A stretch of DNA of 59,719 nucleotides, filler included, from Squatina squatina (Eukaryota): the NCBI GenBank assembly GCA_031763465.1. It is 4 parts of 4 records of this genome, joined end to end, with 100 filler letters (N's around TTAATTAATTAA, not from the genome) between each part and the next. Parts side by side here need not be neighbours in the genome. Positions count along the whole stretch, not along the records: positions 29,852 to 45,369 come from JARFOE010000222.1; 3 more parts are not named here. One strand, written 5' to 3'. Positions 2,295 through 59,639 of this stretch are shown here, in pieces; position 1 is the stretch's first letter, and every line of letters starts with the position of its first letter. The position numbers were made by a program, and so were the translations under genes. The notes beneath the pieces are model-generated. The model was not told the origin of the DNA. It saw only the letters and a program-made list of their open reading frames with translations, and searched no databases.

Positions 2295-2523
2295 CAGCTT
2301 GGCTCAGTGGTGGCTTCCTCTCCATATCAGAAGGTGGTGGGTTCAAGCCCCACTGCAGGGAATTCAGCACATAATCTAGCCGCACTTCCGTGCAAAACTG
2401 AGGGGGTGCTGCATTGTTGGAAGTGCTGTCCTTTGGATGAGATGTTAAACAGAGGCCCGATCTGCCCTCTCAGAAGAGCAGGGGAGTTCTCCCTGGTGTC
2501 CTGGCCAGCAGTCATCCCTCAAC
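2295..2523 (+). mobile_element. SacSINE1-like tRNA-derived DeuSINE, 5' part (truncated by gap)
   Basis: A box TGGCTCAGTGG, B-box-like GGTTCAAGCCC, body GATGAGATGTTAAAC...GAAGAGCAGGGGAGTTCTCCC; colinear with 42062-42483. Confidence 0.8.
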
Positions 2524-3349
2524 NNNNNNNNNNNNNNNNNNNNNNNNNNNNNNNNNNNNNNNNNNNNNNNNNNNNNNNNNNNNNNNNNNNNNNNNNNNNN
2601 NNNNNNNNNNNNNNNNNNNNNNNCGACAACACAGTTGATTTTTATCTTCTAAATCCATTAATATTTTTAGTAAACCCAAATGCTTTTAAAGTCTCCATTG
2701 TTCACCATCTTTTTCTCCCACAATATATTACTGAATTAATAGGAAAAAAAATCAATTAACCATTCTGTATTAACTTTTTTGTTTGAATTTTATACAATAG
2801 TGTACATTGCAACAATAGTAGCCAGGATTTTGTTGCATTCAAACCACCCTATAAATATTGTGATTGGAGCACAGGAAATGCACATAGGTGAATTGTAGAC
2901 ATTCATTTTGATCGAATTACAAACAATAGTATAGGTGCTTCAATTCCAGCACCTTTTTATTTTAATGTATGTTAAAAATTGAAATCTTGACTTATGTGGT
3001 CATGTTGTGAACGCGATATTTTCTTTAACGTGATAAAAGATTGCTTGGTGCCTTATCCCTAATCCCCTACCCTTTAAAACAGTTTGTGGTATGTTCCAAA
3101 GTGCATGGCTGCTACTACTGTGTAGCTTGCAAATCTCTTGACAGATCACGTTTAGATTTTGGATGGGCTATCTGCGCAAGCTGTGGAGAATTGGCTTTCA
3201 GTGTATTGTGCTACGCCTGACAACCGTAGTCTTGTCTCGGTTTGATCTTGTATTTAGAAGATGCAGATTGCCAGAGCAGCTTGGTAACTGGGGTTGTCAC
3301 TCGACCAATACTGTGCTTCTGTTTACTTTCCTTCCTGCAATAATGTCAG

Positions 3350-15197: not shown

Positions 15198-15297
15198 NNN
15201 NNNNNNNNNNNNNNNNNNNNNNNNNNNNNNNNNNNNNNNNNTTAATTAATTAANNNNNNNNNNNNNNNNNNNNNNNNNNNNNNNNNNNNNNNNNNNN
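15198..15297. other. Synthetic scaffolding spacer 44N-TTAATTAATTAA-44N
   Basis: Identical 100-bp structure at 29752-29851 and 45370-45469; the 12-mer gives stops in all six frames. Confidence 0.95.
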
Positions 15298-19527: not shown

Positions 19528-19779
19528 TCCTGTCACTGCTGACTCCAATCAGGCCTGCGCTGTTCCCTCGCTCTCTGTTTAATGCCCTGCTCCTGTCACT
19601 GCCGACTCCAATCAGGCCTGCGCTGTTCCCTCGCTCTCTGTTTAATGCTCTGCTCCTGTCACTGCCAACATCAATCAGGCCTGCACTGTTACCCCGCTCT
19701 CTGTTTAATGCACTGCTCCTGTCACTGCCAACTCCAGTCAGGTCCGCACTGTTCCCCGGCTCTCTGTTTAATACTCTGC
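19528..19779. repeat. 63-bp minisatellite, 4 copies visible (continues into gap)
   Basis: TCCTGTCACTGC recurs at 19528, 19591, 19654 and 19717. Confidence 0.95.
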
Positions 19780-23486: not shown

Positions 23487-23650
23487 TGTGAGTAAGTGCT
23501 GCTTGATTGCACTGTTGATGACACCTTCCATCACTTTGCTGATGATTGGGAGTAGACTGATGGGGCAGTAATTGTCCTGCTTTTTGTGGACTGGACATAA
23601 CTGGGCAATTTTTCACTTTGTTGGATAGATGCCAGTGTTGTAGCTGTACT
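23487..23650 (-). mobile_element. LINE reverse-transcriptase fragment (non-LTR, decayed)
   Basis: The minus strand gives YSYNTGIYPTK.KIAQLCPVHKK and, after a frame break, NYCPISLLPIISKVMEGVINSAIKQHLL, the NYRPISLL motif of LINE RTs. Confidence 0.8.
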
Positions 23651-24570
23651 CATTATTCTCATGCCGGCTCCTGGAATTTAAGAAAAAAATATGAATATCT
23701 CCTTTAAGAACTCCCCATAGGTATGCCACTGGCAGCAGACTCTTAGCTCAGGAGTTCCTTCACTTTGTTGCCAAAGCTCATTAAATAGAAAGGCTTTCTC
23801 TCATGTTCTTCATTGACTTNNNNNNNNNNGAGTGAAGCTACTCCCCCCACTGGGTAGAACCCATAAATAATTATATCCGCGGTCAGTGATATTTTATAAA
23901 ATTGCTAATTTTATAATACATATAGATATCGCCTGAACATTTGATCTCCGTGTTTTGATGTTGAACTATGTAGATTATTCTCTTGTGAACTGCACATCGA
24001 ACGTCAGACATCCATTGGTGTTGTTTTACCCATTGTGGCTCAGCCATCGCTCTTCATTGCTAATAGCTTAATGTCCGCCCCCCTCCTTTTTCGTCTAGTT
24101 TGAGGCATGAGACTGGAATGCCCTCTGTCATCATTTATCATCATTATTTACTCTTGTAAATTTAAACAGCCAAGTATGAACACTGGTAAATATATGCCCC
24201 TAATAAGCATGCTTGCAAACAAATAATTATTTCTTATTTACTTTCTGGTTCCTACATTTTTTCAGATTTAATTAGAAAATTAGTCAATTCACTAAGTAGT
24301 CTGTAAATACAGTCATTGTCAGTCAATAAAAACTGTATGTAGAAGATTTAAGTTATTTTTAATCCAATAAAACATTACAACTATTTTTCCTATCTTTCAA
24401 CAGAAAAATGGGCACCTCCACAGTTTCTAGTTTTATGCAGTTCCACTACTCAATTGATAGGCCATGGAATGAGATTTATAGCACTACTTCTGAAAAGTAG
24501 CCCAACAACCATACATGAAAACATTTTACTTAAACGGTAATTCTCAAATGTAATGATATTAAACATTTAC

Positions 24571-24730
24571 CTTGTTTTGCCGACTCTGAAAGTTTCTCAA
24601 ACTTTTGACAACATAACTGCTGGTTGGTCTCAGCTTGAAGCACATCTTTGTTTTTAGCTCTTGATCTATCCAGTAGCTTGTTTGCATTTTCATAATCCAC
24701 TAATGACCTTGCTCGTCTATAAAGGAGGTC
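24571..24730 (-). CDS. SNX6: Sorting nexin SNX6-like BAR-domain exon
   Basis: 160 nt, CAG acceptor and GTAAA donor. DLLYRRARSLVDYENANKLLDRSRAKNKDVLQAETNQQLCCQKFEKLSESAKQ is closer to recalled SNX6 than to SNX5 or SNX32; paralog assignment untested. Confidence 0.85.
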
Positions 24731-27700
24731 CTGTACACAGTCACGCAGCATGAATAATAAGTAACTTTTTTTTTAATAAAGTATACAAAGTCCATGAAAA
24801 TTACACACGATTATACAAATTGAACTTGTGCATATGACTGTTTGAATGTTTCCACTGCAACTGCTGCTTAATGTTTCGCAGTAAGTAAAATTCAAAAGCA
24901 AGCCAATGGGAAAGCATAAACATTGCTGCAATATTTTCACGATCAAAGTAGTTGGAATGTCACCAACATTTAGATTCAATTATTTTTAATATAAAAAGTG
25001 TTCCTCAGCAGCTCCAGCTTTGGACATCTATTCCTTGTTGGGATATGGCCCTGTAACAACTTGGAACCCTCTTGAATCTTGCCCAAGTGGCTATCATTCA
25101 TGAATGATTCTTAAGTGATGCGTGACTTTTTCTCCAGCTTTACAATAGTTTTGGGTAATTCTGGGATGGCCAATGGAGGAAAATGGGGCAGGGAGGTCTA
25201 CCAATGAATCCCTGCCAAGAAACTAAGAATTTTCTTTCATCCCCACTACATGCCAGTCATACCAAATGCAAATGACAGAAGGCAGGCAGGGTTTGCTTGC
25301 TTGCTCGCTCCCTTTCCTTTTACTAGCACCCATGGAAAATATCTTTGTAAAAGAGGCACTGGGGCAAGGAAAAATAATTCTTCTAAACTACTTTGAAGTA
25401 TAACAGCACTGCAGAAGGTATCCTGTAATCTTTTTCAATTAAACCCAAGTGAGGTGACTTCAAGCTGACAACTTGGCAATGCTCAAGACTGCATTTCATC
25501 ATGAGGCAATAATCAAGTTGTGCTTTCTGCTAGATAGCAGAGGTTCAGCTCACAAGCGAGACTTCAGGTAACTATGATCTGAGAACACTGCAAAGTGAAT
25601 CCTGCCATATTGGCCCGTTTAGCAACTAATTTCCTTTCCGACATGTAGTTTTCCCCAAAGCTACCTTTTAGAAATCATTCTGCTACTCCTTCATACAGGT
25701 CTTCCCTGAACTTGGTTCAAATCATTACGACATATCCGGTCATTGAGTAAAACATTTTACCGAAAACAAATGTGACAACCTTCCCACTGTTTATGATCCT
25801 TGCTGCCTATTTTTGAGTGCCTGTACAATCTTGGCGTTGTACTTTTTCTGTGGCAGAAGGTTCTGAGGAATCTGATGATTTGCAGAAGTAACCTTAGGGG
25901 ATTGAGGTGACCCTTCCATGTCTCTGGCTGTGGGCTGCTTCCCTTTTAAGAAAGTAAAGAATGTGAAACCATTCTGTATGGAATGCAATTGAGATTTCAG
26001 AAGGCATTCCTTAATGGGGGAAGAAAACAGGTGCAGAAATGAGATACATATGGTGTATTCCATTGCTTCTCTGCATGCATGTCCAGTTGCGAGTAAAGGT
26101 CACCTGTAGAAGAAATGAGGTGCGGCCACTATGTTCCACTTGGCCTGAATCATGCCTTCCCTCGGGGTTAAAAAGCTGGCTCCTCCTTTCCCAGATCAGA
26201 CAATTAATCCTCAAATTTAAAAGTTTAAAGTGCCCTGACGAGCCATGACACAATGTTGCGCCAAATTGGTAGACAAAAAAAGCTGCCTTGGCCCTTACAG
26301 CTGCTGCAGCCTGTATAATGCTGCAGCAGCACCAGATTTCCCACTCTCCCAAAAGCAGACACTCTCTATGGGTCCCAGTAGAGCCAGGTACCCGCCGTGA
26401 ACATACACCAAGGAAAATAGAGCAGGTGCTCAGCATTGTACATCACACTGGGATCAGGAGCAGGGATCCTGGCTGATCTTCCCCTTTGTAACGCAATGTC
26501 GCAATCCCTACTTCTTGGTTGAAATCAGCTAACTCAGCACCGACTGGATATCTAGGGGGGGGGAAAAAAAAGAGAAAAAAAAGGGAATATTTTTAACCCT
26601 ACCCGTCCACTGAAACCAAGCAGGTGGGCAGTTAAAATGCCCTGGGTTACTTACCCACTGGAATGCCGCCCAGATTCCAAAGTTCCCAATTTTAATGGAT
26701 ATTAAGCTGCCAGCCCAAAGCTGGGAGACTCCTAACCTAATTCATATGCTAATTTGGGTCCGATGATGTCATCGGGGTCCCGACAACTATTCTAATTTCA
26801 ACTTTCCCACCAGGTGAAGGCCAGAATTGAAGGGGTCAGGAAGCGGAAGATGCCCTCCAAATAAGTTTATTTACTTTCCTTTGTGTGGCCAGAAGTAACA
26901 AGAATCATCGTCCACGACCCACAAGGAAAATTTAGCCACCCTCCCCGGCCCCAGACTATCCCCTTAACTCCCGTGAGACCCTTCCCATTCCCCACAGATT
27001 TCTAGTTGTAAATGATTGCTGTTATAAGGATAAATCCCTGAATTAAAAAGTACGTTCTGCAAAAGGAACTTTAAGAAGGGTGGTAAATTTTACTTTCTTG
27101 TGATTGCTGGCAATAACCATTGAATTTCATAATATTTGGACCAATCAAGCAATGAAATTTCTGGCACAACCATCCAAAACAAATCCATATATGTTATTTT
27201 TGGGGGTAATTCTTCAATTGAAAGAAAGAATTTTGTTTTACAAATGGATCCAGGCTGCACAGTGGCAGTTTCTATGAAAATCCTAAACAATCACACATTT
27301 ATTTTGTTTCTACCTCCACAAAAATGATTATTCTTGGTTATTCTGATCTGTGTAAAGACGTTAATGGGTTTCCAATAGTAAATAAAGCTTCCTTAGCGGA
27401 TGGCTGTCTTAAGTGGCAGATGGTGATTAAAAGCGTCTGGTGGTGAAGAATTGCACTAATCAGAGGCAATTGAAGTCTGATGAAACTGATGTAAAGCAGC
27501 AGTGAGGATTTACAACAGCAGATAGCAGTGATGCTGGCAGAGCAGAAATTACTTTTTTTTTATGGGAGTCATTCTTCCTGTGGGAGTTGTTAATGACCAC
27601 CAGGAGTCAATTTGGAACTCATTCAAAAGGCCCTTTGTTCACTTGACACTAGGAGTGAGGTGTCAAATACCAGCTGGCACCCGCAGTGTCACAGGAAGAG

Positions 27701-29851
27701 CACTGTGTGACACGCAAACCAGAGGCTGTGATCTCATTTTCACTTCAAATGAATGGAAATCTGCTTACTTGTGGCTGGATGCCGTGCAATTAAATCATGC
27801 AAAAGGTCACCTACCGGTTGACTAATGTCAAAGTGCAATAATAACGTTGTTTGAAAGAAATTAGATTGTCCAACCAGGGAATAAAATTGCATTTCTACAT
27901 CCAGTTAATCAATGTGGTAAGTTTTTATCATCTTTTCGTATGTTCAAAGACCTGATCCATGAACCAAATACTTTTCACAAAACTCCTCCAGTAGAAACGG
28001 GAAGGTTCATAGAAATAGACTCTTTGATTATGCACACAGCAGGGTAGAAGTTAATTAGAACAGAAGGAGCTCAACCATGGATTTGAGGCCACCTTGAACC
28101 CGGGTAACCCTCTTTATCTTTTTACAATATTTCCTGTGTCAGATACCTTTTACACCGCTCTGCAAAATTATAGAAGAGTATACCCATGTTCTGTGATTTG
28201 ACCTCCATGAATCTAGCCGGCTTCCTGGGTACTTTGGATAACTAATGGAGACTCATTCTTGGCTGCGTTGCTGTTATAACTAGGCACAGCTTTGCGAACT
28301 GAAACTCCACAGATCCAGTCACTGTTATCCATGTCACAGACACAATGATGAATGTGAGAGGAAGCCATCAAGGAAATGATTATCAGCTTCCTGTGCAATT
28401 CTCACACTTTTGTTCCACTTGAAATTGGCAACATGTTACTAGTAAAAGTCGACATGGGGGATGAAAGACTGCATCTCACAAAAAAAGACTAGATGTGAAA
28501 TCCATAAGTGGAGTGTCGTTCATTCATCCAATTTTTCCTCCAGTTTTGGCACACTTTCCTCTGAGCCAGAAGGTTGTGGGCTCAAACCCAAGGTGATCAG
28601 ATTTTGGGAAGGCCAAACCAGGACAAAACTTACCTGCCAGCTGCGTTGAGAGACTGCGCATGCACAGTCTGGGCTCCATCTCAAACTNNNNNNNNNNNNN
28701 NNNNNNNNNNNNNNNNNNNNNNNNNNNNNNNNNNNNNNNNNNNNNNNNNNNNNNNNNNNNNNNNNNNNNNNNNNNNNNNNNNNNNNNATTCAAAAGGCTC
28801 ACTAAATGACCTAGAAACAGAGCTGGGTTAAGGTATATTAATGTAAATATCGGCTCTGTTTATTTGTATTGAGAAATGTAGATGAAAGGCCAAGGCTTAT
28901 AGTGTGGGACACCAACAAGGTTGAAAAGAATAGGAGAGGAGATGAAATAAATCAATTAGCAGTGATAGGTGATGACCAGCTTGGGGTTTAAAAGCCTATC
29001 GATCGCACAAGGTAGGGAAAGAGTTCAAATTTCACAGTTTTGAAGTCCTGGGAAAGATTGAGTCTGTTAACCTGTCGCCGTATTGCTTTGCAGTCACCCC
29101 CTGCACCCTACATAACTAAACACACAGGGGATGGCACCTTGGTGTGAATTTCATTCTGTTTATGCTAACTGCTGTTGTCACCTTTCGCACTGCAATCTCC
29201 TGTGATAAGCTTTACCTTTCCCACAGCTCCAATCCTTTTCTTATTTTTGTTTGGACTGATGGTGATAGGAACCTTAGACAGCAGCCTGTACAGATGAAAG
29301 CATTTTTGGATCCCTTTAAAACATCTGAGGTTGCACAAAAACAGCTATTGATACTGTTTAGTGTGTTTCTTTCTGGCTCTAGCTCATTTCATCTTGCAGA
29401 AAGAAATACTTTGTGCAGTGAGTGAATCTCTGGGGATTTGAAGGAGTGCATTGTTCATCACAATACATTGTTCATCGTGAGAGAGCAGCGAACACTCACA
29501 TCTGAGGCACTGGAAATGAAGTGCATTCTGGGTAAATGGGGAGCTCATCAATTTCTGTCAGGCCACTTTTGTACACTCACAACTGGATTAACAACTCTTA
29601 ATGGCATTCCTACCGGTTAAGCATCTCCTTAGCGAAACAAAAAGCATTAAGAAATTGTTACTGGTGAATTTTAGTTAGCTTTTTTTTAAATTCATTCACA
29701 GTATACAGGCATTGCTTGCAAGGCCAGCATTTATTGCCCATGAGAAGGTGGNNNNNNNNNNNNNNNNNNNNNNNNNNNNNNNNNNNNNNNNNNNNTTAAT
29801 TAATTAANNNNNNNNNNNNNNNNNNNNNNNNNNNNNNNNNNNNNNNNNNNN

Positions 29852-29956: not shown

Positions 29957-31944
29957 TTCATAAGAATGACAACAGGATGAGATGCAATTTGTGACCTGAC
30001 TAAGCTTAAAGATTTTGGGGGGTGGGGCAGGGGGAAGGAGAGGGGGGAAAAAAGTTCCAAAATTGTGAGGACACTATAGCAGAAGTGTTACATTGGTGAG
30101 ATCAAACTACTACCAAAACAAAAATGGAAGTTATTCCAAGAATTAGCAACAAAAAGGACTGAGTTTAAGAGTTATTAGACCATGTCTTAATTATCACTTG
30201 CAGATAGCATTCCAAAACAGAAGTCATATTTGAAGGATATCAAAAAACACAATAGGATGGAAAAAAATTGATGGCTCCAATTGAGCACCTTCACAAGCTA
30301 GACTGACTCAAAGGCAACAATTTTTCTATCTAAAAACTACATAAAATAGCTACCATCAATCCTAAACAAAGCTTTCATTTGCCACAAGATTTAAAAAAGT
30401 ATTTGTTCCTCTCATGAAACTGCCTCTTGAAATGTGTAAAGTGAAACTGGCGAACACAAGTTAAAATATTCTGCAGGGAGTAAGAGTGCCAGAGAATTCA
30501 GCACAATTTCTTAATTCTTGAAGTGGTACACTGCATTCCTTACCCTTGGAGTATATGGCATCCCAGGGTACTCTCTATTTGGAAAAGGTCCATATGTTCC
30601 ATTGCCAGGTATGGGAATTCCTCTATAGCCGTCAAATCCTGGCAATTAAGAAGGAACAGTTTAGCGTTCAAGCTTCCTTAAGCAGAATACAGTATACTTT
30701 ATACAAAATGTGCAAAGCAAGATTGAAGGGCTCCCAATTAAGTTGAGGCCAAATNNNNNNNNNNNNNNNNNNNNNNNNNNNNNNNNNNNNNNNNNNNNNN
30801 NNNNNNNNNNNNNNNNNNNNNNNNNNNNNNNNNNNNNNNNNNNNNNNNNNNNNNGTGCAAACTCAAGACAGCATTTCTGGTCAGGAGTCAAGATCTCCTA
30901 GTTTGGTGTGCAGTCACCCTAAACTGCTGTCACTAAAATTCAATTTATATAATAGGTACCTCTAGAAGGATGAAACAGATCGCAACCACCATTTTCCCTA
31001 GCAAAAATGGTATGGGCAATACTTGCTAAATGTCACTATGCAAGGACAGTGAGAAAAGGACAGCAATTTGTCCAAGTTAAAACCAGTTCTCAGCCACTCA
31101 CAATCTGTGTAGCCTGAAAGGGTGTGGTCTTCATGCTAATTGGAGAATTGCTTACTGGAGTCTGGAGTACCCGTCCTTGGGATGCTGGAGTTATTGCTGT
31201 GCTTGAGGCAGCCTGGTCATTAGGCAGAGCAGTCACCTGATGGAATGGATAGATAAGGAATTGTTACTTGACACAGATGGAGCAATAAATTGGTTTCAAA
31301 TCCAGCCACTTGAGCATAACTGCCAGAAGTCAGCATTTTTAATAGGACAAGTCATTAGTCAGAGTGCTGAAACAAGTCTATGCTGACTGCAGGACAACCA
31401 GCCAGTAGATTTAATGCTGAGCCAGGTTTTTTTTTTAAAAAAACTGAACAGACTTGTGGGGGAGGGGGGCATTCTGGTGTGTCTGAAGCAATTCCATCTC
31501 ATGAAATGCAGAAGTATTTCATGGAGATGAAAGTCGAAGGGAATAATTTGTGTTCTAAGTATTTCTCCCTTTGCTGCCCCGGAATTATTTTTTGTTATTA
31601 ATAATGGCAGTTTTATCTTGGATGCAGTCCTTTTGAGTTGGGTCTTGACTCCTTCTCTCTGCCAGATTTGATGCTCCACAATGGATTGCGCCTTCTGCAT
31701 CCTGGAGTGAGGCACTATTGCAATTGGGTGGCAAGATTGAGAGTCACTTTGGAGTAGATCTGACCCAGGAAACCATTATAAATCTGCTCCTGCCTGCTGT
31801 GTGGCTTCTGGGTGTGTGCTCCTCGCAGATAGATTGTTGCACCCTGTCAAGACAATAATCATCATTTTAACCCAGCTCATCAGATGCCCGCACTTGCCAA
31901 TAAAACAGCGTTCACAAAAAAAAATCTCTGTTCTGGAGTTATTG

Positions 31945-32282
31945 ATCTGGTCAGGAAATTGGCTGAGCGGCAGTAGACAGGCTGAGGGGATAATGGATGG
32001 GTACTCAAATTGGCAGGAGGTGACTAGTGGTGTCCCACAGGGATCTGTGTTGGGGCCTCAACTATTCACTATTTATTAACGACTTAGAAGATGGCGAGAA
32101 AGTCATATCTAAATTTGCCGAAGACACAAAGATAGGTGGAATTGTAGGCTGTGCAGATGGAAGTATAAAATTACAAAGGGATATTGACAGATTAAGTGAA
32201 TGGGCAAAACTGTGGCAAATGGATTTCAATGTAGGCAAATGTGAGGTCATCCACTTTGGACCTAAAAAGGATAGAACAGGGG
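31945..32282 (+). mobile_element. CR1 LINE RT fragment (frameshifted, degenerate)
   Basis: GVPQGSVLGPQLFTI / INDL / SKFAEDTKIGG / LQRDIDRLSEWAKLWQMDFNVGKCEVIHFG; the catalytic FADD is mutated to FAED. Confidence 0.92.
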
Positions 32283-32513: not shown

Positions 32514-32984
32514 TCAGTCATGACGTGCAAGCGTTTCTAGTCCACCAAAGTTGGCTGGTCTTCTCACCTCTTTGGGCTCGGGCAGAATTCTCTTTGGTTC
32601 AGCAGATTCCTTTGGGACAGATCCAGGTTCCCAACTTTTCGTCTCTTGTACGTCAGAGTACGGCACATCCCACTTTTTGGGTGGCTCCTCCTGCTTCCTA
32701 TTTACGTACTCTGTGTCCCACTTTTTGGGCGGCTCCTCCTGCTTCCTATTGACGTACTCTGTGTCCCACTTTTTGAGGGGCTCCTTGTCCTGTTTTCTAT
32801 CGATGTACTCGTCATCCCAATTTTTAGGGGGAGAGTCCTCGTGCTTTCTACTGATGTAGTCAGTGTCCCACTTTTTGGGAACCGCCTCTTGCTTCCCGCC
32901 AACATACTCTGCTTCCCAGTTCCTTGTTTTTTCTGGCTGTTTCACAGCGTAGTCAGTTTTGTTCAGGTACTGCCTATTCAAAAA
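32514..32984 (-). CDS. Terminal coding exon of an unidentified gene, 156 aa with ~16-aa W-D-x-E-Y repeats
   Basis: Strong acceptor CTCTCTCTTCCTCTTCCCAG, phase-0 open frame to TGA, and two 48-bp units differing only at synonymous third positions. Confidence 0.75.
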   Translation of the reverse strand, partial: FLNRQYLNKTDYAVKQPEKTRNWEAEYVGGKQEAVPKKWDTDYISRKHEDSPPKNWDDEYIDRKQDKEPLKKWDTEYVNRKQEEPPKKWDTEYVNRKQEEPPKKWDVPYSDVQETKSWEPGSVPKESAEPKRILPEPKEVRRPANFGGLETLARHD

Positions 32985-34349: not shown

Positions 34350-34785
34350 CAACATTTATTTATATAGTGCCTTTAATAGTAAAATGTCCCAAGGCACTTN
34401 NNNNNNNNNACAGGAGCATTTTCAAACATAATGGTTATCAAGCCACTAGAGATAGTAGGACAGGTGATCAAAAGCTTGTTCAAAGATAGGTTTTAAAAAG
34501 CTTCTTAAAAGGAGGAGGGGTAGGGAGACAAAGAGGTTTAGGGAGGCAGATACCAAGTGAGGGGCGATGGCAATAGGAAGTGCAAGAAACCAAAATTGGA
34601 GAAGTGCAGAGATCTGGAAAGTTTGTCAGGCTGGAGGAGTTAGAGAGATAGGGAGGGGTGAAGGCGAGACCATGGAGGAATCTGAACACAAGGATGAAAA
34701 TTTTAAATTCGATGTGTTGCCAGACAATGTAGGTCAGTGAGTATTGGGGTGATGGGTGAACAGGACTTGAGTGGGAAGGGATGGA
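34350..34785 (-). mobile_element. L2-like LINE 3' portion
   Basis: The minus frame contains IEFKIFILVFRFLHGLA...PPYL and FKKLFKTYL, typical L2 C-terminal motifs. Confidence 0.75.
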
Positions 34786-34789
34786 CCAC

Positions 34790-35505
34790 ACCATTACCTC
34801 AGTAGTCCAAGGATTTGTCCTTGGCTCAATCCTATTGCTCATCTATATGCTGCCTCTTGGTGACATCAGAAAACACATCAGGTTCCACTTGTATGCTGAT
34901 GACACCCAGCTACCCCACTCATTGCCTCAAGTCATGCTGTTTGTCTGACATCCAGTACTGGATGACTAAAACTTCCCTCCAACTAAATAGTGGGAAGACT
35001 GAAGCCATTGTATTTGGCCCATGACTCAAAATCCACTTCTGGGCCACTGACTCCAGCAGTCTCCTGGCTCCTGTGAGGATGACTAAAACTGTTTGCAACC
35101 TCAACATTCTATCAGACCATAAGCTCTTGTAACAACCCTCATCCATGCCTTTGTTACCTCTACACTTCACTATTCCAATGCTCTCCTGGCCAGCCTCCCA
35201 TCTTACACTCCTACAAACTAGAAGTCATCCAAAACTCTCCTGCCCATATCCCAACAGTCACCATCCCATAAACGCATCATGGACTAACAATGGCTTGCAT
35301 TCCAGCAACACCAATTTTAAAAATTCTCATCCTAGTTTTCAAATTCCTGCATAATCTGATCTCTTCCCCCATCCATCTCCAACCTCAACTCTGGTTATCT
35401 ATCCCAATTGCTCATGTGGCTCAGTCAAATTTTGTCTGATTAAGCTCCAGTGAAGTGACTTGGGAGGTTTTACAGCCTTAAAAAAGGTGCTATATTATTG
35501 TTGAT
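34790..35505 (+). mobile_element. L2-like LINE RT to 3' end, decayed
   Basis: QGFVLGSILLLIY, LYADDTQL, LSDIQYWMTKTSLQLNSGKTEAIVFG, and the tail AAAGGTGCTATA. Confidence 0.8.
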
Positions 35506-36817
35506 ACAGGCAGAAGCGTTTCGGATGAGCTGAAGTTTGGAGAGTAGAAGGCTAGCCAAGAGAGCATTGGAATAAGCAGTACATAAACAATTCTGACTAG
35601 TTTCATGCTAGCCTCAAAAGTACCCAATCTACACTTCCACACAGCAAGATCATAGCTGTAGTTCCAGTAGCTGTTGTGAGCACATGCAGTTTGTATCTCA
35701 AATTCAATATTTTAAAAATGCCATATAGCTACAAAGTGATCTTGGAGTGCAAAATGCTCATTTCACTTCTAGTTTAAGCTAGCAATTTATTAACTCCAAA
35801 GCAAGACTGCAAAGTGAATAGTACAAGCCTAGGTTAAGTGGGAAGCTTATTCAAAATTAGAGGCATGATGTTAAGCAAATGAGGTTCAAATTGAATCACA
35901 TACAGGCAGCAACTAAGGACACAAGGAATGTTCAATTTTTCCAGCTTAATTAGTTTCTTAGTAATAGGAGAGAATATAACAGTGTCGATTTGAACAGCTC
36001 TTCAGTGTCACAATAGCAAGTCTTGTAGAACCTGACAACTGCAGGTTTGCGAGGTTACCAACCACTAGGATTAACCAATTCAAAAATGCATACCAATTGA
36101 TCCTGATTAAGTTCTTCTCGTTTTAAGCGTTCTTTATAGTCATCCAGTTTTGCCTTGGGGGAACAAAAAACAGCAACACCACAGGGTTATGCATGCCGAT
36201 TCACATTCGCCATATGCACAGTATTAGAATTCATACTAAATGTTTTATCTATAACGATTTAAACTCGTGAGTGTTCCATATGGCTGGAGAGAGGAGAAAT
36301 AATGTAATGTGTACTGACTAAAGTATTGGCTTGCCTTAAACAATGTTGTGTTCAGCTGTTTTCCATTGATACACTTGCAAAAGAAAAATATACCAATATT
36401 GGTTTTAGCAAAAAAGTTTTTTTTTTTAAAATGTTATCCTATACCAACAGACGTTTCAATTTCACAGCAACCTTGTTTGGTGAAGCCGAGAACTCCCGTT
36501 ATCCACTGAAGGTTAAGTTGCAAAGTGCTGCATAAAACAAGTTATATTCCAAGCTTTAACCCAAGAGGGCAACGGTAGGTCAATTGCTGCGTGCATTCGA
36601 ACAGAACACATGGAAGAGCCAATTCATGCACGTCCGACTTCAAATATGAAGCCGCNNNNNNNNNNNNNNNNNNNNNNNNNNNNNNNNNNNNNNNNNNNNN
36701 NNNNNNNNNNNNNNNNNNNNNNNNNNNNNNNNNNNNNNNNNNNNNNNNNNNNNNNGTTATCTGACAGTTCCATTGTGCAGCACAAGTTCCCCCACTCGGC
36801 CCTGTCACTGTACTTAC

Positions 36818-36917
36818 ATGATTCCAGTTCTTTTTGGAACCCACAGGGAGCTTCTTCCACCGTTTCACCAGGAGCACACAGGCGTTGCAGATCTCTCCTG
36901 AACGGGCTTCATTCAAC
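36818..36917 (-). CDS. SINHCAF: SINHCAF/FAM60A second coding exon
   Basis: 100 nt, AAG acceptor and GTAAGT donor; LNEARSGEICNACVLLVKRWKKLPVGSKKNWNH, in phase with the preceding exon. Confidence 0.95.
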
Positions 36918-37039
36918 CTTTGAGAAGTGAAAACACCATGAGGGAATAATGAGCGATCAATCTGACCTGAGCGTCCATAAAAAGATTACAATGTTTTTGC
37001 TTTTGTTTTTTTTGGTGGGGGAAGTTTCCCCCTCCTTAC

Positions 37040-37874: not shown

Positions 37875-38189
37875 TCATTTATTGTCCATCCTTAGTTGCC
37901 TTGAGAAGGTAGTGGTGCGCTTTCTCCTTGTAAGTTGTGTGACTTGCTCGGCCATTTAATTTAAGAGTCAACCACATTGGTGTGGAGCTGGAGTCACATG
38001 TAAGTCAGACCGGGTAAGGGCGGCAGGTTTCCTTTTTTTTAAAAAGCTAATAATCCAACAGCTTCACAGTCACTTTACAGATACCAGCTTTTCACTTATC
38101 TACCTAACAGCACCGTGGGACCATCTTCACCACACGGACTGCAGCGGTTCAAGAAGAAGGCCCACCGCCACCACCTTCACAGGGCACCT
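37875..38189. mobile_element. Second tRNA-SINE family copy (minus, ~37875-38090) and partner LINE 3' end (plus, ~38100-38189)
   Basis: The minus part matches 56298-56748 in reverse. The plus part encodes LPNSTVGPSSPHGLQRFKKKAH and shares ACTGCAGCGGTTCAAGAAG with the SINE tail. Confidence 0.7.
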
Positions 38190-41849: not shown

Positions 41850-42060
41850 ATTTAAGTGCAGATTGTTATTAGGCCATGGAATGCCCAACTAGAAATGGTG
41901 GAGCAAGCAGAATCTATAAAAAGGTTTTCACAGAGAAGTGGACAAAATATTTGAAAATGAAAAATGTAAAAGGGCAGAGAAAGGGGTAGGGGACTGGGAC
42001 TAAGTGACTATCCTTTTCAGAGAGCTGGCACAAGCATAGTGGGCGGAATGGCCCTCTCAA
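41850..42060 (+). mobile_element. CR1 3' end, decayed
   Basis: TGGAATG...GGTGGAG...GAGAGCTGGCACAAGCATAGTGGGCGGAATGGCC; interrupted by the following SINE, with the tail resuming near 42483 (CTTCTGTACTGTAGCATTCTA). Confidence 0.65.
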
Positions 42061-42061
42061 G

Positions 42062-42483
42062 TGTCAGCTATGGCTTGGTGGTAGCACTCTTGCCTCTGTG
42101 TCAGAGGTCATGGGTTTAAGCCCCACTTCATGGGATTTGAGCACATAATCCAGGCTGACCCTTCAGTGCAGTGCTGAGGGAGGGCTCCAATGTTGGAGGT
42201 GCTGTCCTTCAGATGAGATGTTAAACCAAGGCCCTGTCTGCCCTCTTAGGTGGATGCCGTGGCACTATTTCGAAGGACAGGGGAGATCTCCCCCTGTACT
42301 GGCTAATATTTATCCCTCAACGAACATCACTAAAAGAGATGATCTGGTCATTATCACATTGCTGTTTGTGGGACCTTGCGTTTCCTATATTACAACAGTG
42401 ACCTCACTTCAAAAGTATTCCTGTAAAGTGGGACATCCTGAGGCTGTGAAAGACAGTAAAGAAATGTAAGTCCTTGCTTTTCC
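42062..42483 (+). mobile_element. Near full-length SacSINE1-like DeuSINE
   Basis: tRNA head, central body, Deu-like domain (GGTCATTATCACATTGCTGTTTGTGGGA...CACTTCAAAAGTA) and L2-like tail (GGGACATCCTGAGGCTGTGAAAG). Confidence 0.85.
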
Positions 42484-43075: not shown

Positions 43076-43495
43076 TTGCAGGGGGTCCCCAGGAATGTGA
43101 GAATAGTTGCAGGGGCTCCCCAGGAATGTGTTAATAGTTGTAGGGAGTCCCCAGGAATGTGTCAATAGTTGCAGGGGGTCCCCAGGAATGTGTTAATAGT
43201 TGTAGGGAGTCCCCAGGAATGTGTTAATAGTTGCAGGTATTCCCCAGAAATATGTCAATAATTGCAGTCGATCCCCAGGAATGTGTCAATAATTGCAGGG
43301 GGTCCCCAGAAAAATGTCAATAATTGCAGGGGGTCTCCAGGAATGTGCCAATAGTTGTAGGGGTTCCCCAGGACTCTGTCAATAATTGCAGAGGGTTCTG
43401 ATGAAGTGTCCATAATTGCACGGGGCTCCTCGGAAACAGGTCAATAGTTGGAGGTGACTCAAGAGTGTGTCAATAGTTAATAATTGCAGGGTGTA
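43076..43495. repeat. ~30-31-bp minisatellite, degenerating toward the 3' side
   Basis: Unit approximately AATAGTTGCAGGGGGTCCCCAGGAATGTGTC, about 13 copies. Confidence 0.92.
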
Positions 43496-44767
43496 CCTGA
43501 GACTGAAAATGTGAAAACCACTAAAGAAAAAGCTATCATCATATAAACGTGACAGGCAAACCTTACTTTCTGCTGAGGTGATAGCAGAACCATGCTTCAT
43601 TCTGTTGCAATGAGGTCAGGCATCAAGTCTCATCAGGCGGTTTTTTCAGATAATTTACAAAACTGCCAGCAGTTTTCATAAACAAAATGAAAAAAAAATG
43701 CCAAACATTTTCACATGGGTGCCGGCTACACCTAATATTCGCCTAGGTTGACTTTCTTCAGGCAGAAGCCTTGAGATTGACTGACAACAAGCACTGTACC
43801 TTGGAGGGATTGTACTCAAACCCTGATTCTCCACTCAAAAGGAGGTCCAATCACATCCAATTTCCAGCAAGGGTCTGCTGGAGAGCGGGCAGGAATGAGA
43901 AATCTGGCTGATCTTCTTTCTCACTGAAGCCAATTACTACCACTGCCCCCCAGCCCGGATCAAATTTAGCACGGAGAGGAGATTGAAGCTGGGACCTTCT
44001 AGTTTGCAAGTATTAGTACAACGTTGGCTCATTCGCCCAATGGGACAACTGATTTTTTTTTGTCTAGTAGATTTTATCGAATATCATTTTGAATGAATGG
44101 AAGTGGAAGGAAACCCATTCAGAGAAACGATCGGTTCACGTTATTCTGGCCCTATTTGTTATCAGTGCTGTTGTTAGACAAGGATGTGAGTCATGCCATC
44201 GCCCACAGGATTAGCTGTGAAAAGGCCAATAATAAATCTATTATTACGTTTGTCACCATCATCCTGGTCTTCTGGACAAAGCATATGAGGCTCTGGTGCT
44301 TGGATGGCGAAGGAACAGTGCCTTTGAGCAAGCCAGCTGTCTGGGAACGAAAAGCACTTGATATGAAAACCTTTCTGTACGAATCTCCTTAGGGATCACC
44401 TTAACTGGATAAACAACTGACGTACGACAGGGCAAACAGAACAGAGCTTATTTCAGCAGCTGAACCACAGCCAGCCACATAAATCTCTGTGATTAAGAGG
44501 GGTATATAAACTGCCCTGTCAGCAAACATTACAGAATACTGTTCACCAATTTTTTTGTGCTGTTAGTCGCGGCAGGCATTAAGGCTTTTTCACAATTACG
44601 TGAACATCTTTAGAGTTACACGTTGCCCTGACGATTAAATATTGTCATCAGAAAACAATTACATTGAAAATCAGGACAAAATATTAGCCTAACATTTCTA
44701 CATTTGCCAAAGCTTTCCTTCATCTAACAGTATCCTGTGGGGCAAAATAACATACAACAAAAATGGG

Positions 44768-45369
44768 GTATGGTAACATAGTGGTTATGTTACTGAACTA
44801 GTAATCCAGAGGCTTGGAATAATGATCCAGAGACATAAGTTCAAATCCCACCATGGCAGCTGTGGAATTTAAATTCAATTAATTAAATAAATCGGAAATC
44901 AAAAGCTAGAATCACTAATGTTGACCATGAAACTACTGGATTGTCATAAAAACCCATCTGGTTCACTAACGTCCTTCAGGGAAGGAAACTTGCTGTTCTT
45001 ACCTGGCCTATATGTGACTCCAGACCCACAGCATTGTGGTTGGTTCTTAACTGCCCTCTGAAATGGCCTAGCAAGCCACTCAGTTGTATCAAACCGCTAG
45101 GAAAAACCAATAAGAATAAAACTGGATGGTCCACCTGACATCGACATGGCACCGGAACTGGACATGGCAAAGGCACACTCAGCCCAGTCAACCCTGTAAA
45201 GTGCACCTCACTAACATGTGGGGACTTGAGCCAAAATGGGAGAGCTGTCCCACAGACTAATCAAGCAACAGCCTGACATAGTCATACTCACAGAATCATG
45301 CTTTCAGCCAATTTCCCAGACTTCTCCATCACTATCCCTGTATATGTCCTGTCCGACTAGCAGGACCGA
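44768..45369 (+). mobile_element. LINE-like 5' end with tRNA-derived head followed by an APE endonuclease N-terminus
   Basis: A box at 44774-44784 and B box GTTCAAATCC at 44839-44848; from ~45208 LTNMWGL.PK / GELSHRLIKQQPDIVILTES (APE motifs, frameshifted). Confidence 0.75.
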
Positions 45370-46261
45370 NNNNNNNNNNNNNNNNNNNNNNNNNNNNNNN
45401 NNNNNNNNNNNNNTTAATTAATTAANNNNNNNNNNNNNNNNNNNNNNNNNNNNNNNNNNNNNNNNNNNNTATCAGAGAAACAGGCTTCTGGCAATTCAGG
45501 TCATTTTTTGCAGTAACAAAGTTTGAAATGGTTAACATTTGAAGAAATGTAAATACAGACCAAAGAGATTGGTGTTAAAAACAATGACCTATTAGACAAT
45601 ATAAATTAACACTGAACTCTGAATAGACTGCAGAGGACTCGGTTCAATGGAGTCAGGTTACAAATCTTCACATCTCAAAAGGCAAAACCCTGCCCGTGTT
45701 GAGTTGAAGAGAATGTACACCACAATGTTAGTGACACAGTCGGTATTTCAGCTCTATTTCATGAGCACTCGACTGTAATAATTTAACAATCACCCACTGA
45801 TTTTGTACCATTGAGACCACAGTTCACTAACTCACTCCACATCTGTTAAATGAATATCCCTGCTAACTGCATAACTCGCTTTGTGAAATGAGGTATGAAA
45901 ATGATATTAGTAGGGATACACAAGAATTAAATAATCCATCTAGTCTCTGCAAGAGTCTTGCTGAAAGCTTTTGTTTTGTAAATATAATGCACAGGCAGGA
46001 GGGGCATAATACATCTCCAACTATCATAATTAAGGATTGTTGTTTCTTTGCGAAAGATGTATTTTTGATTTAAGCTACAGACTTTAATAGAAGTCACACT
46101 CCTATTATACAGCAAAGCTATAACATTCTGCCTTCCCTTCCCCAGTTATGTTGATAGCGTGTGACCTGTCTGAACAATAGGGGACCAGGTGTCACAATGG
46201 GGTCTTATTAAAATAAACCAGCTATAGAAAGCGCAAACTATAACAATTGGGGTCAATAGGC

Positions 46262-46431
46262 GAATCGTTATCACATTTCATACATCGACATTACCGCCCT
46301 GAGTGAGACACGGTGGGCAGGAGAAGGCTCATCAAGGACAGAGGCGGTCAATGATCACTGGAAGGAGCGCTTCGAGGATCTCCTCAACCAACACTCTGTC
46401 TTCGACGCAAGTGTCCTTGGCTCCATCCCAC
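46262..46431 (+). mobile_element. RTE-clade LINE fragment with large internal deletion
   Basis: IDITALSETRWAGEG (endonuclease) joined to HWKERFEDLLNQHSVFDASVLGSIP (pre-RT motif RWxEHFxDLLN). Confidence 0.7.
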
Positions 46432-53000: not shown

Positions 53001-53579
53001 ATCCTAAAATAATTTTTTGATTTTGAGCATCCTGTTGCAAGAGGACTCATCAGATTTTTATTTTAAAATCAGTTGATTTACATTTTCTGAACAGCATTTA
53101 CAGGAGGGTTTGTTCACATCATAACTGTACATATTCATTCTATATGCTGGAGTCTGCCACAGAAGGGCATCGTCTCAGACTGGTGGACAAGAGCCATCCT
53201 GTTTTTTTCCCCGGAGGCAGTTGAGATGGATCAGTTTTCTGCCCATTTTCCATCTGGCATCAGCCTGCAACTCCCTGCGAAAACTTAAGTTTATTTGTTT
53301 TCTTGTTTGCACCGGTAATGATGGCTTCAAGAAACAATGAGGTGTCTTTAAGTCCGTCAAATAATTAAACCAAGAATGATGTGTTTTAAAAAGACGGGAA
53401 ACAATACTTTTTGTTGGAAAAGGGGAAGAGAGTCAGCCCTGGGGGGAGTTACTGAACCAGTGTCTTGAGAAGGGGGCGTTGGGTAATTTTATTCACAATT
53501 AAGGACCAGATTGATGAAGCACCATCTCACAGGTTAACTCAGCTCATGATCAAGCCCAGTAGCTCCAAGCCAATTTCCA

Positions 53580-53727
53580 TGATGAAATCATCAACGCCTA
53601 CTGCTTGAACAAAAATATTCAGTGTCATCAGCTGCTTCAATGGATAAAATAGCTCCCTCGCCAAGAATGAAGCAGCTGATGACACTGCATATTTTTGTTT
53701 AAACAGTAGGCGTTGATGATTTCATCA
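53580..53727. repeat. 60-bp inverted repeat (3 mismatches) with 28-nt loop
   Basis: 53580-53639 versus 53668-53727; extends imperfectly about 13 bp outward. Confidence 0.95.
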
Positions 53728-55299
53728 AGGCAAATGGCTTTGAGGAGTTACTGCGACATTGACACAACAGCAGCAAGAAATGGATCAGTCATCAAGGTGG
53801 ATGTTATCTCTCTGGAGTCAGAGTCCATCTCCTCACTGAAAAATGCACCCCCAGCAAGGATAAATAATTGATGGGAATACATACTTACAAACACAAAACT
53901 CAATTGATCTACAAGTTTAAAATAAGGGTGAAAACAAAGAAAAACCAGCACCTATTCAAGAACAGAAAAAGGCATGCGAGTCAGTTCCAAGTTACTTTTC
54001 TTTGACNNNNNNNNNNNNNNNNNNNNNNNNNNNNNNNNNNNNNNNNNNNNNNNNNNNNNNNNNNNNNNNNNNNNNNNNNNNNNNNNNNNNNNNNNNNNNN
54101 NNNNNNAGGCAACAGCGGCCAGAGGGTGGATATGGAGTCAGTAAACCCACCATTCCCATAGGTATTAAGTTGAACCAATAGCAACAGGAGTTGCTATCAG
54201 AGCAATCGAAAAGTTATTGATGACGACAATAGTGCATAACTGCAATAGCAGAAGTCAAATATTTTTTTAAGCTACGTTAGAAATTAGAGCACCATTAAGG
54301 ACTGCAAAGGGGTGTTGAAGAGTTCCACAGGGAATATTCATCTGGAATTCCAGGATACGGCAGAGCTTTAAAATAGTTACATTCCAACAATCTTCGCTCC
54401 AACAGACGATGCTCAGTTACCAACAACAGTTGACTCCAAAGTGGGCTCACATATAGTCCTGAATAGAATAAAAGATCTCAGAACAGATCAGGCTGCTGGT
54501 CCGATGGCATTCATCCAAGGTGGCTCAAGGAAATGTGAACCGTGGGACAGGCTCAATGGACCAGCTGGTTGTCTCCTGTCGGTCATCCTCATATTTGTAT
54601 TTATGAAACGCATATTACACTACTTGGTTAGTTTATTCAGTGACAACCGAGTATCTTCACCCAACTCCTTCCAATGTAGAAATAGAAAGTTATTTATTTT
54701 AGCTCCTCCGAGCAGAAAGTGATTTTCAGATTAAATTGCAGGAAACTGAAGTGAGGCTTTCCATGCCTTTTCGTTGATCAAATTCAGGGAATGAAAAATA
54801 TTCACCATTCTTCACTGGTCAAGAACCAATTTTAAAAAGTTTGAAATGCCATTTTAACAAGGTTTCCCGTGGACACATTGCTACTGCCCAGAATATTAAT
54901 GTGAACACTGCAGGTTTATAAGCTTACACAGGCAGCATTCAAATGGGGGAAAAAATCTCATTGTATGCAACCACTCCACAATCTCTTCAGCCTGCAGTTT
55001 TCATGCAATAAGAAAAAACTCAAATTGTGCAACCCCTCCCTGCTCATTTAATGCAATGGCAACCCTTGCACAGTTATTCCCATTAGAGGATTATCCAAGT
55101 TCGGCTCAGACAGAACAAAGATTACAAGTGTCATGTCAGATACGTATTTATTCCAATCTACAAAAATGGCACTCTTAAAATAAAGGACATGCAGGAATCC
55201 TCATTGAAAACAGAAAATTCTGGAAATGCAGAACAAGCCATGAAACCTCTGAAAGACAAAAAGAGGTTAATATTTCAAGTGTGACCCTTGGTCACAGGC

Positions 55300-56297: not shown

Positions 56298-56748
56298 GGT
56301 AGCATAGTGGTTAAGTTGCAGGACTAGTCATCCAGAGGCTTGGACTATTGATCTTGAGTTCAAATCCCGCTGTGGAATTTAAATTCAGTTAATTATAAAT
56401 AAATAATCAGGAATTTTTTTAAAAAGCTCATGTCAGTAATGGTGACCATGAAACAATCAGATTGTCATAAAAACCTGTCTGGTTCACTAATGTCCTTTAG
56501 GGAAAGGAATCTGCAATCCTTACCTGGTCTGGTCTATATGTGATTCCAGTCCCAGAGTAATGTGGTTGACTCTTATCTGCCCTCTGAAATGGCCTAGCAA
56601 GACATTCAGTTGTAAACAACCGCTACAAAAAGTACTGCAGCGGTTCAAGAAGGCAGATCATCGCCACCTTCTCAAGGCAACTAGGGATGGGCAATAAATG
56701 CTGGCCTTGCCAGCGACGCCCACATCCCAGGAACGAATTACAAAAAAA
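56298..56748 (+). mobile_element. Full-length tRNA-headed SINE (head+tail derivative of the LINE at 44768)
   Basis: A box TAGCATAGTGG (56300-56310), B box GTTCAAATCC (56358-56367), body colinear with 44770-45099, LINE tail GGGATGGGCAATAAATGCTGGCCTTGCCAGCGACGCCCACATCCC and an A-rich end. Confidence 0.85.
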
Positions 56749-58059
56749 ACATGATTTTCAAAATCCCTGTCCTCATTTATAAATGCCTCCATCNNNNNNN
56801 NNNNNNNNNNNNNNNNNNNNNNNNNNNNNNNNNNNNNNNNNNNNNNNNNNNNNNNNNNNNNNNNNNNNNNNNNNNNNNNNNNNNNNNNNNNNNGATCAGC
56901 CATGATCTTATTGAATGGCGGAGCAGGCTTGAGGGGCCGAATGGCCTATTCCTCCTATTTCTTATGTTCTTCTGCAAGCAGCCGAGTGCTATGCACACAT
57001 GTATTGCAAGTGTATTTTAAACACTCAGGGCTCATCATGTGACAAAGTGATGCAGCACCTCAAGAAAATAAAACTCAAACACAGGTTCATTTTAAGAGAG
57101 CTGATCAATCAAACGCAAAGGCACTGGGACAGAGTGTCGGAATGAGAAACAGCCATAGTTATAACTTTGTATTCTGGTTTTAACAAGTTGTGGTGCTCCT
57201 CAGGTGTGTAAATGCACTGAAGACAGCACGGTTCCAGATCCAATACTGGGGGGTGGGGCGCAGAATCTCTATACTAGGGAGGGGGACATGCTTCCTATTC
57301 CAGAAGAGCAGTTCGTGGAGAAATTTTGAAGGAGTAAAAGAACAAAAAAAGTGCATAATCTATCAAACTTGCTCCAAAGCAGCTGCTTTGAATAGGCTAT
57401 TTGAAGTGGGAAGAGGTGATGAAAGGTTGCCAAGATGGCCCAATCAAATTTCAGAAGATTAGCAACTGACGTGGGCTGCACTGCGCTACAAAGATACATA
57501 TACCAGCCCCACAGAGGGACCACTGAACAGAGCAACAATTCAACTGCAATTTTGCTTCCTTTTCCATCCAACCCTTTTAATTCCATTCAGGCAATGCAGC
57601 ACTCCAGGCCACTGCCTTCTGCCACTAGGTGGTGAGCAAGCACAGCTTGTTCATTACTGCTGCATTTTATTTGATATAATTCATAGTCATTTGACTGGAC
57701 ATTACAAACCCACTTTGTGACCTCCAGAATTCAGAACAAGGCATATTTCACACCTATAATGAACATATTTCAACAAAACACTGCACAGATATTTCTTGGG
57801 TCCTGCAACTTCACTTTCCAAACATCTGTTTTGACCCAATAATCCACTGGTGTTGTGCCAGTCCTAACCCAAACACCACAATGTATATATTAAAATACAC
57901 ATGCACAGGAAAGCATCAACACCTCCCACTCACAAAGACCTCCTTCCAACATTGGCATTCAGCTTAGGAGATTTTACACTCACGATTCCTTCCAAAAAAG
58001 TGAAAAAATCAGGATTGTAAAGGCATGTAAAAAAATCCTTTTACATTACATATTTGAGC

Positions 58060-58225: not shown

Positions 58226-58845
58226 TATTGGATGTCCATGGGTAAGGAGCTGGTGGCGGGCAGGGTGGGTGGAGGAGGCTAGAAGAGATTCCTGATCCTT
58301 CACCTCCATTCCAGATACCAACTTCTTTGGGAACGGTCCAATGTTCACGTTCCAGTACATCATCCAAGTGATTATTCAGGGAGAGGGGAACAGCTGAGCT
58401 TGATCTGATCTTCACCCAATATATACATTCATACACACTTTCCACTGGGACCACAACTGATTATTCCCTCCCTAGCCTGGGGATGCGGAGAACACCTGTC
58501 GTGCCCACTCCAGATACATAACAAAAGGAACATCTGCAGTTTGGGAGTGTAATATCCATGCTCCCTGTCACAACACTTACTTACGATTACATTGCTTCCA
58601 AATTCAGAGCAGAATTCCTCAAGTAGCCCATAAAAACATTTTGGCACCACTTCTACTCTATCTCATCTCATCATTTTGTACAAGCAATTGCTCCCATCAA
58701 AACATGAGGCAGGAAAAGCAATATTATTTTCCTAATTTCTACCCAATGCATTAAACACTCAAATAATTTCAGCATTACATTTCTGGGTGCCTTTTGAGTT
58801 CCACAAAATGTTTCTTATTTCTCAATTGACAGTTATACAGTTTAC

Positions 58846-58952
58846 CTTTCACTAGCCCGGAGTTTTTCTGGACCTTGGGTGTAAACTGCAATCGACCAGT
58901 CAACACAGCGAGCAAATCCTTCACGAAGCAGTAGCTCGGTGATATTACCATT
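58846..58952 (-). CDS. SND1: SND1 (Tudor-SN) internal exon, SN2 domain
   Basis: 107 nt, CCACAG acceptor and GTAAA donor; [35 protein letters not shown](R) is nearly identical to recalled SND1. Confidence 0.95.
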
Positions 58953-59639
58953 CTGTGGATGAAATGAGAGGAATCCAACGTGTTTTTTTAAAAATGCAAA
59001 TAAAACCAAAACAATTCTTCTGTATGTCATAGCACAGAAAAGCAGGCAGTGCCTTCTCTTGCCTGTGCTTGTCGCAGACTCCCGAACGTTACCTTTTAAC
59101 AGCAAAGCCCAAAACAGTCATACTCCGAGCACAAACCAGCAGAAGTCGGAGGCATGCTCCCGTTTACATTTTCTTCACCGGTTAATGAGGGCTAGTGCCA
59201 TAAAGCTGCGCAAGTCTCCCATTGTTTCTCTCCTCCCTCACCCCCCCGCTCCTCACCCTCTTATCCAAAAAGACCTCTTCACCCTATTTTCTTCTGCACC
59301 ACCAGCACTTTGAAGCTGAATATTTTCTTACTGCAGCCAGCAGCTTTCCCCAGCAGATGGCAAAATTGAGTAGCTTCTGCTGGTTTCAATCTTGCTTCTC
59401 AGTGAGACAGCTTCTCGGTCAATCCAACATAGCACATCCACATATCAACATGGTGCACCAAAGGGTGAAAGAACAGGTCCGATCCCATGATTCTTCATGC
59501 AGGAGGGTCCCAATCTTGGGAGATCGGCGAGAGTACCCACCAAGCATGGGTTAAATTCTTCAAAAGATGGAGGAGGAACTGAGAAAGGTACAAAGGACAA
59601 ATCACCCCAGTCGTCACCTGTCAAATAGATGTTGGCAGA

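Follow-up and report, generated by a model that had tools for sequence, protein, structure and literature searches.

A retrotransposon copy that begins like a tRNA gene and runs on into coding sequence lies at positions 44768-45369 of a 59,719-nucleotide stretch of Squatina squatina DNA, the whole of which we call the window. Its order is a tRNA-like head, a body of about 250 bp, endonuclease coding sequence and then a scaffold gap at 45370. With a probability of roughly 0.6 we read it as a gap-truncated elasmobranch Zenon, an element of about 3.3 kb with a single open reading frame, in which the tRNA-like head with its A and B boxes likely acts as an internal Pol III promoter. Judged from its sequence, the segment is a decayed 5'-end copy of this CR1-group element, and the comparisons below establish at the same level that head, leader and endonuclease belong together as a unit in five species of sharks and rays. 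Zenon is a known LINE family; as far as we have searched, its SINE-type head is undescribed in the literature.

Table 1. Features of the Zenon family in the window.
Feature	Position	Strand	Basis
tRNA-like head, cloverleaf with long variable arm, element 5' end	44767..44858	+	Rfam RF00005 alignment; 5' ends of 7/7 elasmobranch Zenon consensus sequences
Pol III type-2 A box (motif)	44774..44784	+	1 mismatch to consensus pattern; exact in paralogue 56300-56310
Pol III type-2 B box (motif)	44838..44848	+	0 mismatches to consensus pattern
5' leader ('body'), common to full-length element and short forms	44859..45105	+	76% identity to 56298-56631; Zenon consensus motifs
A-rich linker and pre-endonuclease segment	45106..45212	+	P0004 residues 1-35, two frames; uninterrupted in consensus printouts
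APE endonuclease, N-terminal part, two frameshifts, ends at scaffold gap	45213..45369	+	P0003 residues 23-84
SINE-sized short form	56298..56749	+	Head and body; from ~56632 on, final codons of the ORF, 3' hairpin, AATAAA, A tail
5'-truncated short form	37876..38034	-	Earlier breakpoint, leader equivalent ~45085
ORF 3' end of Zenon family, separate insertion	38094..38189	+	77% over 52 nt to tail of 56298 copy, E 1.2e-5
RT-proximal fragment, separate insertion, other scaffold piece	23487..23651	-	P0004 tblastn E 8e-16
3' tail only (AATAAA, A tail), scaffold end	29680..29751	-	79% over 62 nt to 56687-56748

Three weak Rfam matches were obtained on 44760-44870. The best of them was to tRNA (RF00005); its alignment spans a full cloverleaf, with a long insertion in the variable arm, and its score of 13.8 bits (E 1.6) lies below the cut-off of 29. 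From the long variable arm we presume a tRNA donor of the Ser/Leu type. ARAGORN found no tRNA gene, Rfam returned no match at gathering score and no tRNA on a 770-nt stretch, the paralogous head at 56298 had no Rfam tRNA match, and the head at the 44768 locus folded no better than its shuffles (z -0.21). The boxes were scored against general consensus patterns. The window has two pairs of such quality, 44774/44838 and, in the paralogue, 56300/56357, where 400 Markov-simulated windows had 0.0025 on average; at looser stringency the figures are five and 0.23. At the 44768 locus the boxes are 53 nt apart, and the A box is set 7 nt in from the element's 5' end, as it is in tRNA genes. Taking alignment and motifs together, we regard the tRNA likeness as real but decayed. 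The preliminary description had placed the A box correctly and the B box at 44839, one position too late; in calling the segment a Pol III head it named motifs that are present in the sequence, while the wording went beyond them to promoter use.

Downstream of the head the body follows, and the two together (44772-45105) agree with the second copy at 56298-56631 in 267 of 350 columns. The shared part ends 108 nt before the endonuclease motif N.WGL (45213-45227), much as first described, with a SINE-like head and body and then some 110 bp before the APE motifs. N.WGL and the second motif, PDIVILTES (45272-45298), are in different frames, and the match to residues 23-84 of the protein P0003 is spread over three (combined E 3e-12). 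This copy thus carries two frameshifts inside the endonuclease and another just upstream; no open frame at the locus exceeds 110 codons, and none of five short window translations matched Pfam. About 445 nt separate the 5' end of the element from the APE motif. The remark that an ORF1 is absent is borne out by this distance and by the consensus length of 2.9-3.3 kb, but the absence is quite ordinary, because it is the norm for Zenon, as it is for Rex1, in the available text of Stuart et al. (2026, PMC13343379). As the copy is cut at the join of 45370-45469, the RT, the tail and a target-site duplication are unreadable there.

Protein relatives supply the same order of parts. The translation across the junction, with X at stops, returned no candidate from a set of 5.8 billion proteins. 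The endonuclease piece found one protein, the gene model P0003, among two candidates. Its residues 1-14 match leader sequence in each of the three copies in the window, here at 44966-45007, the single matches being weak (E 0.1-4.8), and the rest of it matches the window endonuclease; P0003 itself resembles Exo_endo_phos (Pfam E 0.091; Atlas 0.95) and is 33% identical to the APE of P0056. A search with P0003 yielded, among 423 candidates, a single protein, P0004, which joins the pre-endonuclease segment, the endonuclease and an RT with RVT_1 (E 1.9e-12). Both proteins are probably spliced predictions, and we therefore take them as evidence for order and not for distance. At E <=0.001 the RT fragment at 23487-23651 matched 473 proteins, the top matches including about 20 fragments of 65-84% identity; the nearest among 17 long relatives are P0056 and P0131, with an RT identity of 36%. 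APE and RT in one ORF are thus seen by way of P0004, the 44768 copy itself holding only the start of the APE.

The assignment to Zenon rests on window motifs that recur exactly, as DNA, in sequences which PMC13343379 places in Zenon by RT trees, as far as that source is available to us. Every Zenon that this source describes, whether from sharks, rays, coelacanth or hagfish, lacks ORF1 and ends in poly(A); the source adds that the elasmobranch ones were absent from repeat repositories. Of the ten Zenon consensus sequences in its Table S2, three are from hagfish and coelacanth and seven from elasmobranchs (SquAca_Zenon-1, -2 and -3 and CarCar_, RhiTyp_, ScyCan_ and HypSab_Zenon-1; by their labels Squalus three times, Carcharodon, Rhincodon, Scyliorhinus and Hypanus), the latter with 2886-3314 characters. 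Within the first 400 characters of each Table S2 cell, which our comparison covered, all seven elasmobranch sequences, from five species, open with the head and continue by way of the leader to the pre-endonuclease segment; by eye, the head was not seen in the first 400 nt of the three others. Exact matches to three window motifs were found in 4, 6 and 6 rows of the table, all of them within the seven. The table has more than 900 rows of CR1-group consensus, and in their first 400 nt exact B-box strings occur in six, all elasmobranch Zenon, the B box of the Hypanus consensus being imperfect. By eye the window copy is closest to the Squalus set. As the junction is present in every one of the seven, the join of head and LINE is family-wide. 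The proposal that head, leader and endonuclease form the 5' end of a single-ORF retrotransposon is thus supported, also by the order in P0003; had the junction been confined to this locus, or had full-length copies begun differently and carried an ORF1, this would have spoken against it, and neither was found.

Some properties of these consensus sequences bear on their weight. According to the available methods of PMC13343379 they were built semi-automatically with inspection by hand and extended outward from RT seeds, not from SINEs. Such an extension could favour the head at the 5' end, as short copies share the leader, yet the tRNA boundary at which they end is the same in all seven consensus sequences. 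In the legible cells of Table S3 each elasmobranch Zenon consensus stands for 59 to 2313 copies, and the methods as we read them suggest that these are copies of more than 80% length. Table S4 gives Zenon 0.7-6.8% of seven elasmobranch genomes versus 0.018% in the chimaera Callorhinchus, figures that may include short forms.

The window holds further members of the family. The 56298 copy, of 452 bp, has both boxes exact at 56300 and 56357, departs from the leader at the position that corresponds to 45105, and contains a T7 run at 56414 and a 3' hairpin at 56684-56729 (z -3.74); A tails on family 3' ends are found at 56741-56749 and 29687-29680. A search for its target-site duplication gave a single 7-mer, away from both ends. 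In the copy at 37876-38034 the leader breaks off some 20 nt sooner and the tail resumes at a later point, an arrangement that a later local deletion could also have produced. As the leader is shared and is followed either by the endonuclease or by the end of the ORF, a single head and leader leads to either the endonuclease or the tail. The short forms are SINE-sized with two different breakpoints, consistent with internal deletions. They combine the 5' part of the LINE, the end of its ORF and its 3' UTR, the composition of a SIDE of the Persaeus type, and the SINE2 definition, short and non-coding, describes the 56298 copy and not the 44768 locus with its endonuclease coding sequence. The preliminary description had supposed that the RT fragment at 23487 and the 3' end at 38100 might belong with the 44768 copy. 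They do belong to the same family, the former because P0004 joins this RT to the endonuclease segment of the 44768 copy and the latter by its match to the short-copy tail, but each is a separate insertion.

Three properties make Pol III transcription likely on the evidence of motifs and boundaries: the position of the boxes, their retention in full-length sequences and the coincidence of the 5' boundary with the start of the tRNA. Runs of at least four T, the Pol III terminator, are absent from the 973 nt of window fragments (P 0.16 against mononucleotide and 0.36 against dinucleotide shuffles), as they are from 14 of 646 background windows of 602 nt, and by eye none occurs in the seven printed consensus 5' ends, which make up 400 of about 3300 nt each. 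Initiation by Pol III would nevertheless be the weak step of the mechanism that we propose; the T-run deficit is not significant, and the T7 run of the 56298 copy and the general difficulty of translating an RNA that has no cap speak against it.

The alternative that survives best keeps the head as part of the element and has Pol II make the translated full-length RNA, either by read-through or from a promoter that lies within the head or the leader, the A and B boxes being kept for short non-autonomous forms or for Pol III templates mobilised in trans. Autonomous LINEs generally use Pol II, whose cis-elements may conflict with Pol III (Kojima 2018, PMC5786205), and in Lepidoptera Zenon amplifies without a Pol III promoter, as does Persaeus, which derives from it by deletion (PMC6740152). 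An AATAAA lies upstream of the A tail, and the requirements of translation would be more easily satisfied. Selection on the short forms alone, however, would not act at the very 5' terminus of the full-length consensus, where the boxes are found in five species, nor does this alternative sit easily with an element 5' end that equals the start of a tRNA; we consider it rather unlikely.

Less probable still is a role of the cloverleaf as RNA, by which RNase P or a similar activity would cut a precise 5' end from a host co-transcript, or the fold would aid cap-independent initiation. HDV-like ribozymes give precise 5' ends in R2, RTE and Ingi elements. Every arm of the cloverleaf aligns in the 44768 copy, by eye the stem of the variable arm in the available Carcharodon and Squalus consensus differs by two double, compensatory changes that keep its pairing, and 5' self-processing is described in other LINE clades (PMC5786205). 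Since the A and B boxes overlap the D and T loops, their conservation does not separate an RNA role from that of a promoter. The pairing of the acceptor stem, however, looks poor by eye in both the Squalus and the Carcharodon consensus as printed, and the folding of the head does not rise above that of shuffles. Chance adjacency, a SINE beside a 5'-truncated LINE with an abundant SINE glued on during consensus building, could appeal to the lack of a readable 3' end or target-site duplication in the 44768 copy, to the abundance of head-bearing short copies (two others in the window) and to a junction-spanning translation without relatives, but it is largely refuted already and hardly credible, as raw genomic sequence runs continuously across a junction seen in seven of seven consensus sequences from five species, P0003 has the same order, and the exit points of the short forms differ while all lie on the long form.

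Under the preferred reading, that of a Zenon with its own Pol III promoter, an element entering or arising in the elasmobranch ancestor would have exchanged its original 5' end for a head taken from a tRNA or a tRNA-SINE. The capture may have happened once, in or before the shark-ray ancestor, probably by template switching of the RT or by a 5'-truncated insertion behind a tRNA or SINE head. TFIIIC would bind the A and B boxes, transcription would start at the first bases of the head, and target-primed reverse transcription from the 3' hairpin and poly(A) end would copy the Zenon RNA into new sites. As this RNA would begin at the start of the head, each full-length copy would carry its own promoter, and internal deletions that keep this promoter and the tail recognised by the RT would yield tRNA-SINEs in one step. 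More tentatively, and at clearly less than even odds, the shark and ray Zenon may be an autonomous 'SINE that codes', with a terminator-free Pol III transcript of 3.3 kb and translation independent of cap and AUG, occupying up to 6.8% of shark genomes and giving rise to tRNA-SINEs by deletion alone.

RNAs made by Pol III are uncapped and poorly translated. To judge from the frames, a Zenon ORF on such an RNA without a visible in-frame AUG would need non-standard initiation. By eye, six of the seven printed elasmobranch 5' ends have an AUG just past the A-rich linker, and this conserved AUG is ATA at 45116 in the window copy. Relative to it the endonuclease frame is -1 in the Hypanus printout, in P0004 and in the window, P0003 being the exception; upstream, the endonuclease frame is by eye open, arginine-rich and free of AUG. 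The puzzle may be solved by an error in the consensus, by a frameshift or by initiation at a codon other than AUG. A start at the AUG in the leader (56560) was rejected because by eye the A-rich linker varies in length from one consensus to another and does not preserve the frame. In the short copy an ORF of 45 codons (56560-56697, +) begins at this leader ATG and passes in frame across the deletion into the last codons of the LINE, a 1-in-3 chance event. Intact ORFs number 0/2313, 1/1419, 3/612, 1/294, 0/396 and 0/59 in the legible cells of Table S3 (PMC13343379), a scarcity that age alone could explain; the seventh cell, that of SquAca_Zenon-1, is corrupt and reads 675852, apparently through a spreadsheet date conversion.

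Among known systems the elasmobranch Zenon of PMC13343379 is the same family as the window copy, with exact motif matches, no ORF1 and a poly(A) tail, and within the first 400 nt of its consensus sequences no sequence feature sets the two apart. The lepidopteran Zenon/CR1B and its SIDE Persaeus (PMC6740152) likewise combine a single ORF with short poly(A) derivatives made of 5' leader, ORF end and 3' UTR, which arose several times; unlike the shark short forms, Persaeus is stated to have no homology to tRNA, 5S or 7SL and no Pol III promoter. Bov-tA, AfroSINE, CoeSINE4 and SINE2_Gav (PMC5786205) share with the shark short form a tRNA head, a LINE 5' part and a 3' tail. In the model of Kojima (2018, PMC5786205), however, the head is added to an already deleted LINE and the contributors are RTE and Vingi only, whereas here the clade is Zenon and the coding element itself is headed. 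The one passing precedent for a tRNA-bearing LINE that we found is RTE-1_DAn, together with elements related to it (Repbase), of the RTE clade, whose tRNA-like sequence is mentioned in a single sentence that gives neither its position nor its role, and which we compare by description only. SolRTE in Nicotiana (bioRxiv 2022.11.04.512097), and mammalian L1 in the work cited there, show that LINEs gain new 5' promoter regions time and again; that paper contains no mention of a tRNA or Pol III source.

The literature searched, thin in subscription papers and with Repbase, Dfam and SINEbase outside its scope, holds no description of a tRNA head on a shark Zenon. The available main text of PMC13343379 has no match for tRNA or polymerase III and its supplement none for tRNA, the sections covered do not mention short Zenon derivatives, and the accessible text of the preprint of Stuart et al. 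has no match for tRNA, promoter or pol III. In the portions available, bivalve tRNA-SINEs (PMC11481361) and butterfly ZenoSINEs (PMC6685494) carry Zenon tails only, and a whale shark preprint (10.1101/443036) names CR1-Zenon once and tRNA never. The elephant-shark SINEs of PMC5499810, CORE and Deu SINEs with an L2 partner in the part available, were set aside as a different element, and a search for BovB with SINE heads gave nothing relevant among the papers listed. Four window motifs had no match in the full texts of papers searched, the leader motif none in bacterial and archaeal genomes, and the head matched phage records once over 24 nt, by chance.

The window also contains features of its own. 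It has 41 N runs, and joins of N44, a 12-base linker with stops in six frames and N44 are located at 15198-15297, 29752-29851 and 45370-45469, with a bare linker at 16849; it appears to be several scaffolds joined, so that gene neighbourhoods across the joins are meaningless. Two open frames may be exons, the one at 24533-24772 (-) resembling a sorting nexin of the SNX5/6 type and the one at 58845-59117 (-) SND1, with no Pfam support at either position, and 36761-36985 (-) is a FAM60A/SINHCAF exon (Pfam PF15396, E 1e-20). The repeats include a second family with copies 77-82% alike at 2289-2473 (+), 11003-10900 (-) and 42059-42249 (+) and an A/B pair at 2300/2340, presumably the Deu-domain SacSINE1. 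A further A/B box-like pair with one mismatch each at 22091-22028 (-) is probably the head of another SINE. A fragment at 46266-46430 (+), without a Pfam match, is one that we take to resemble an RTE-type endonuclease start, and CR1/L2-type RT fragments lie at about 31939-32280 and 34733-34924. Self-inverted, MITE-like stretches, 68-81% complementary, are found at 53557-53753, 5769-5858 and 13510-13680, and tandem arrays of 63, 48 and 31 bp at 19528-19779, 32668-32879 and 43076-43454, respectively.

SINEs and LINEs are usually divided by their promoters, the parasite having a tRNA head and Pol III, the coding host Pol II. A coding LINE with a tRNA head that is kept across sharks and rays blurs this divide. 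It offers a second route to the birth of SINEs, head first and deletion second, which would reverse the usual order if true, and a natural test case for the translatability of a long Pol III RNA. For the annotation of shark repeats it means that Zenon will be split between SINE and LINE labels.
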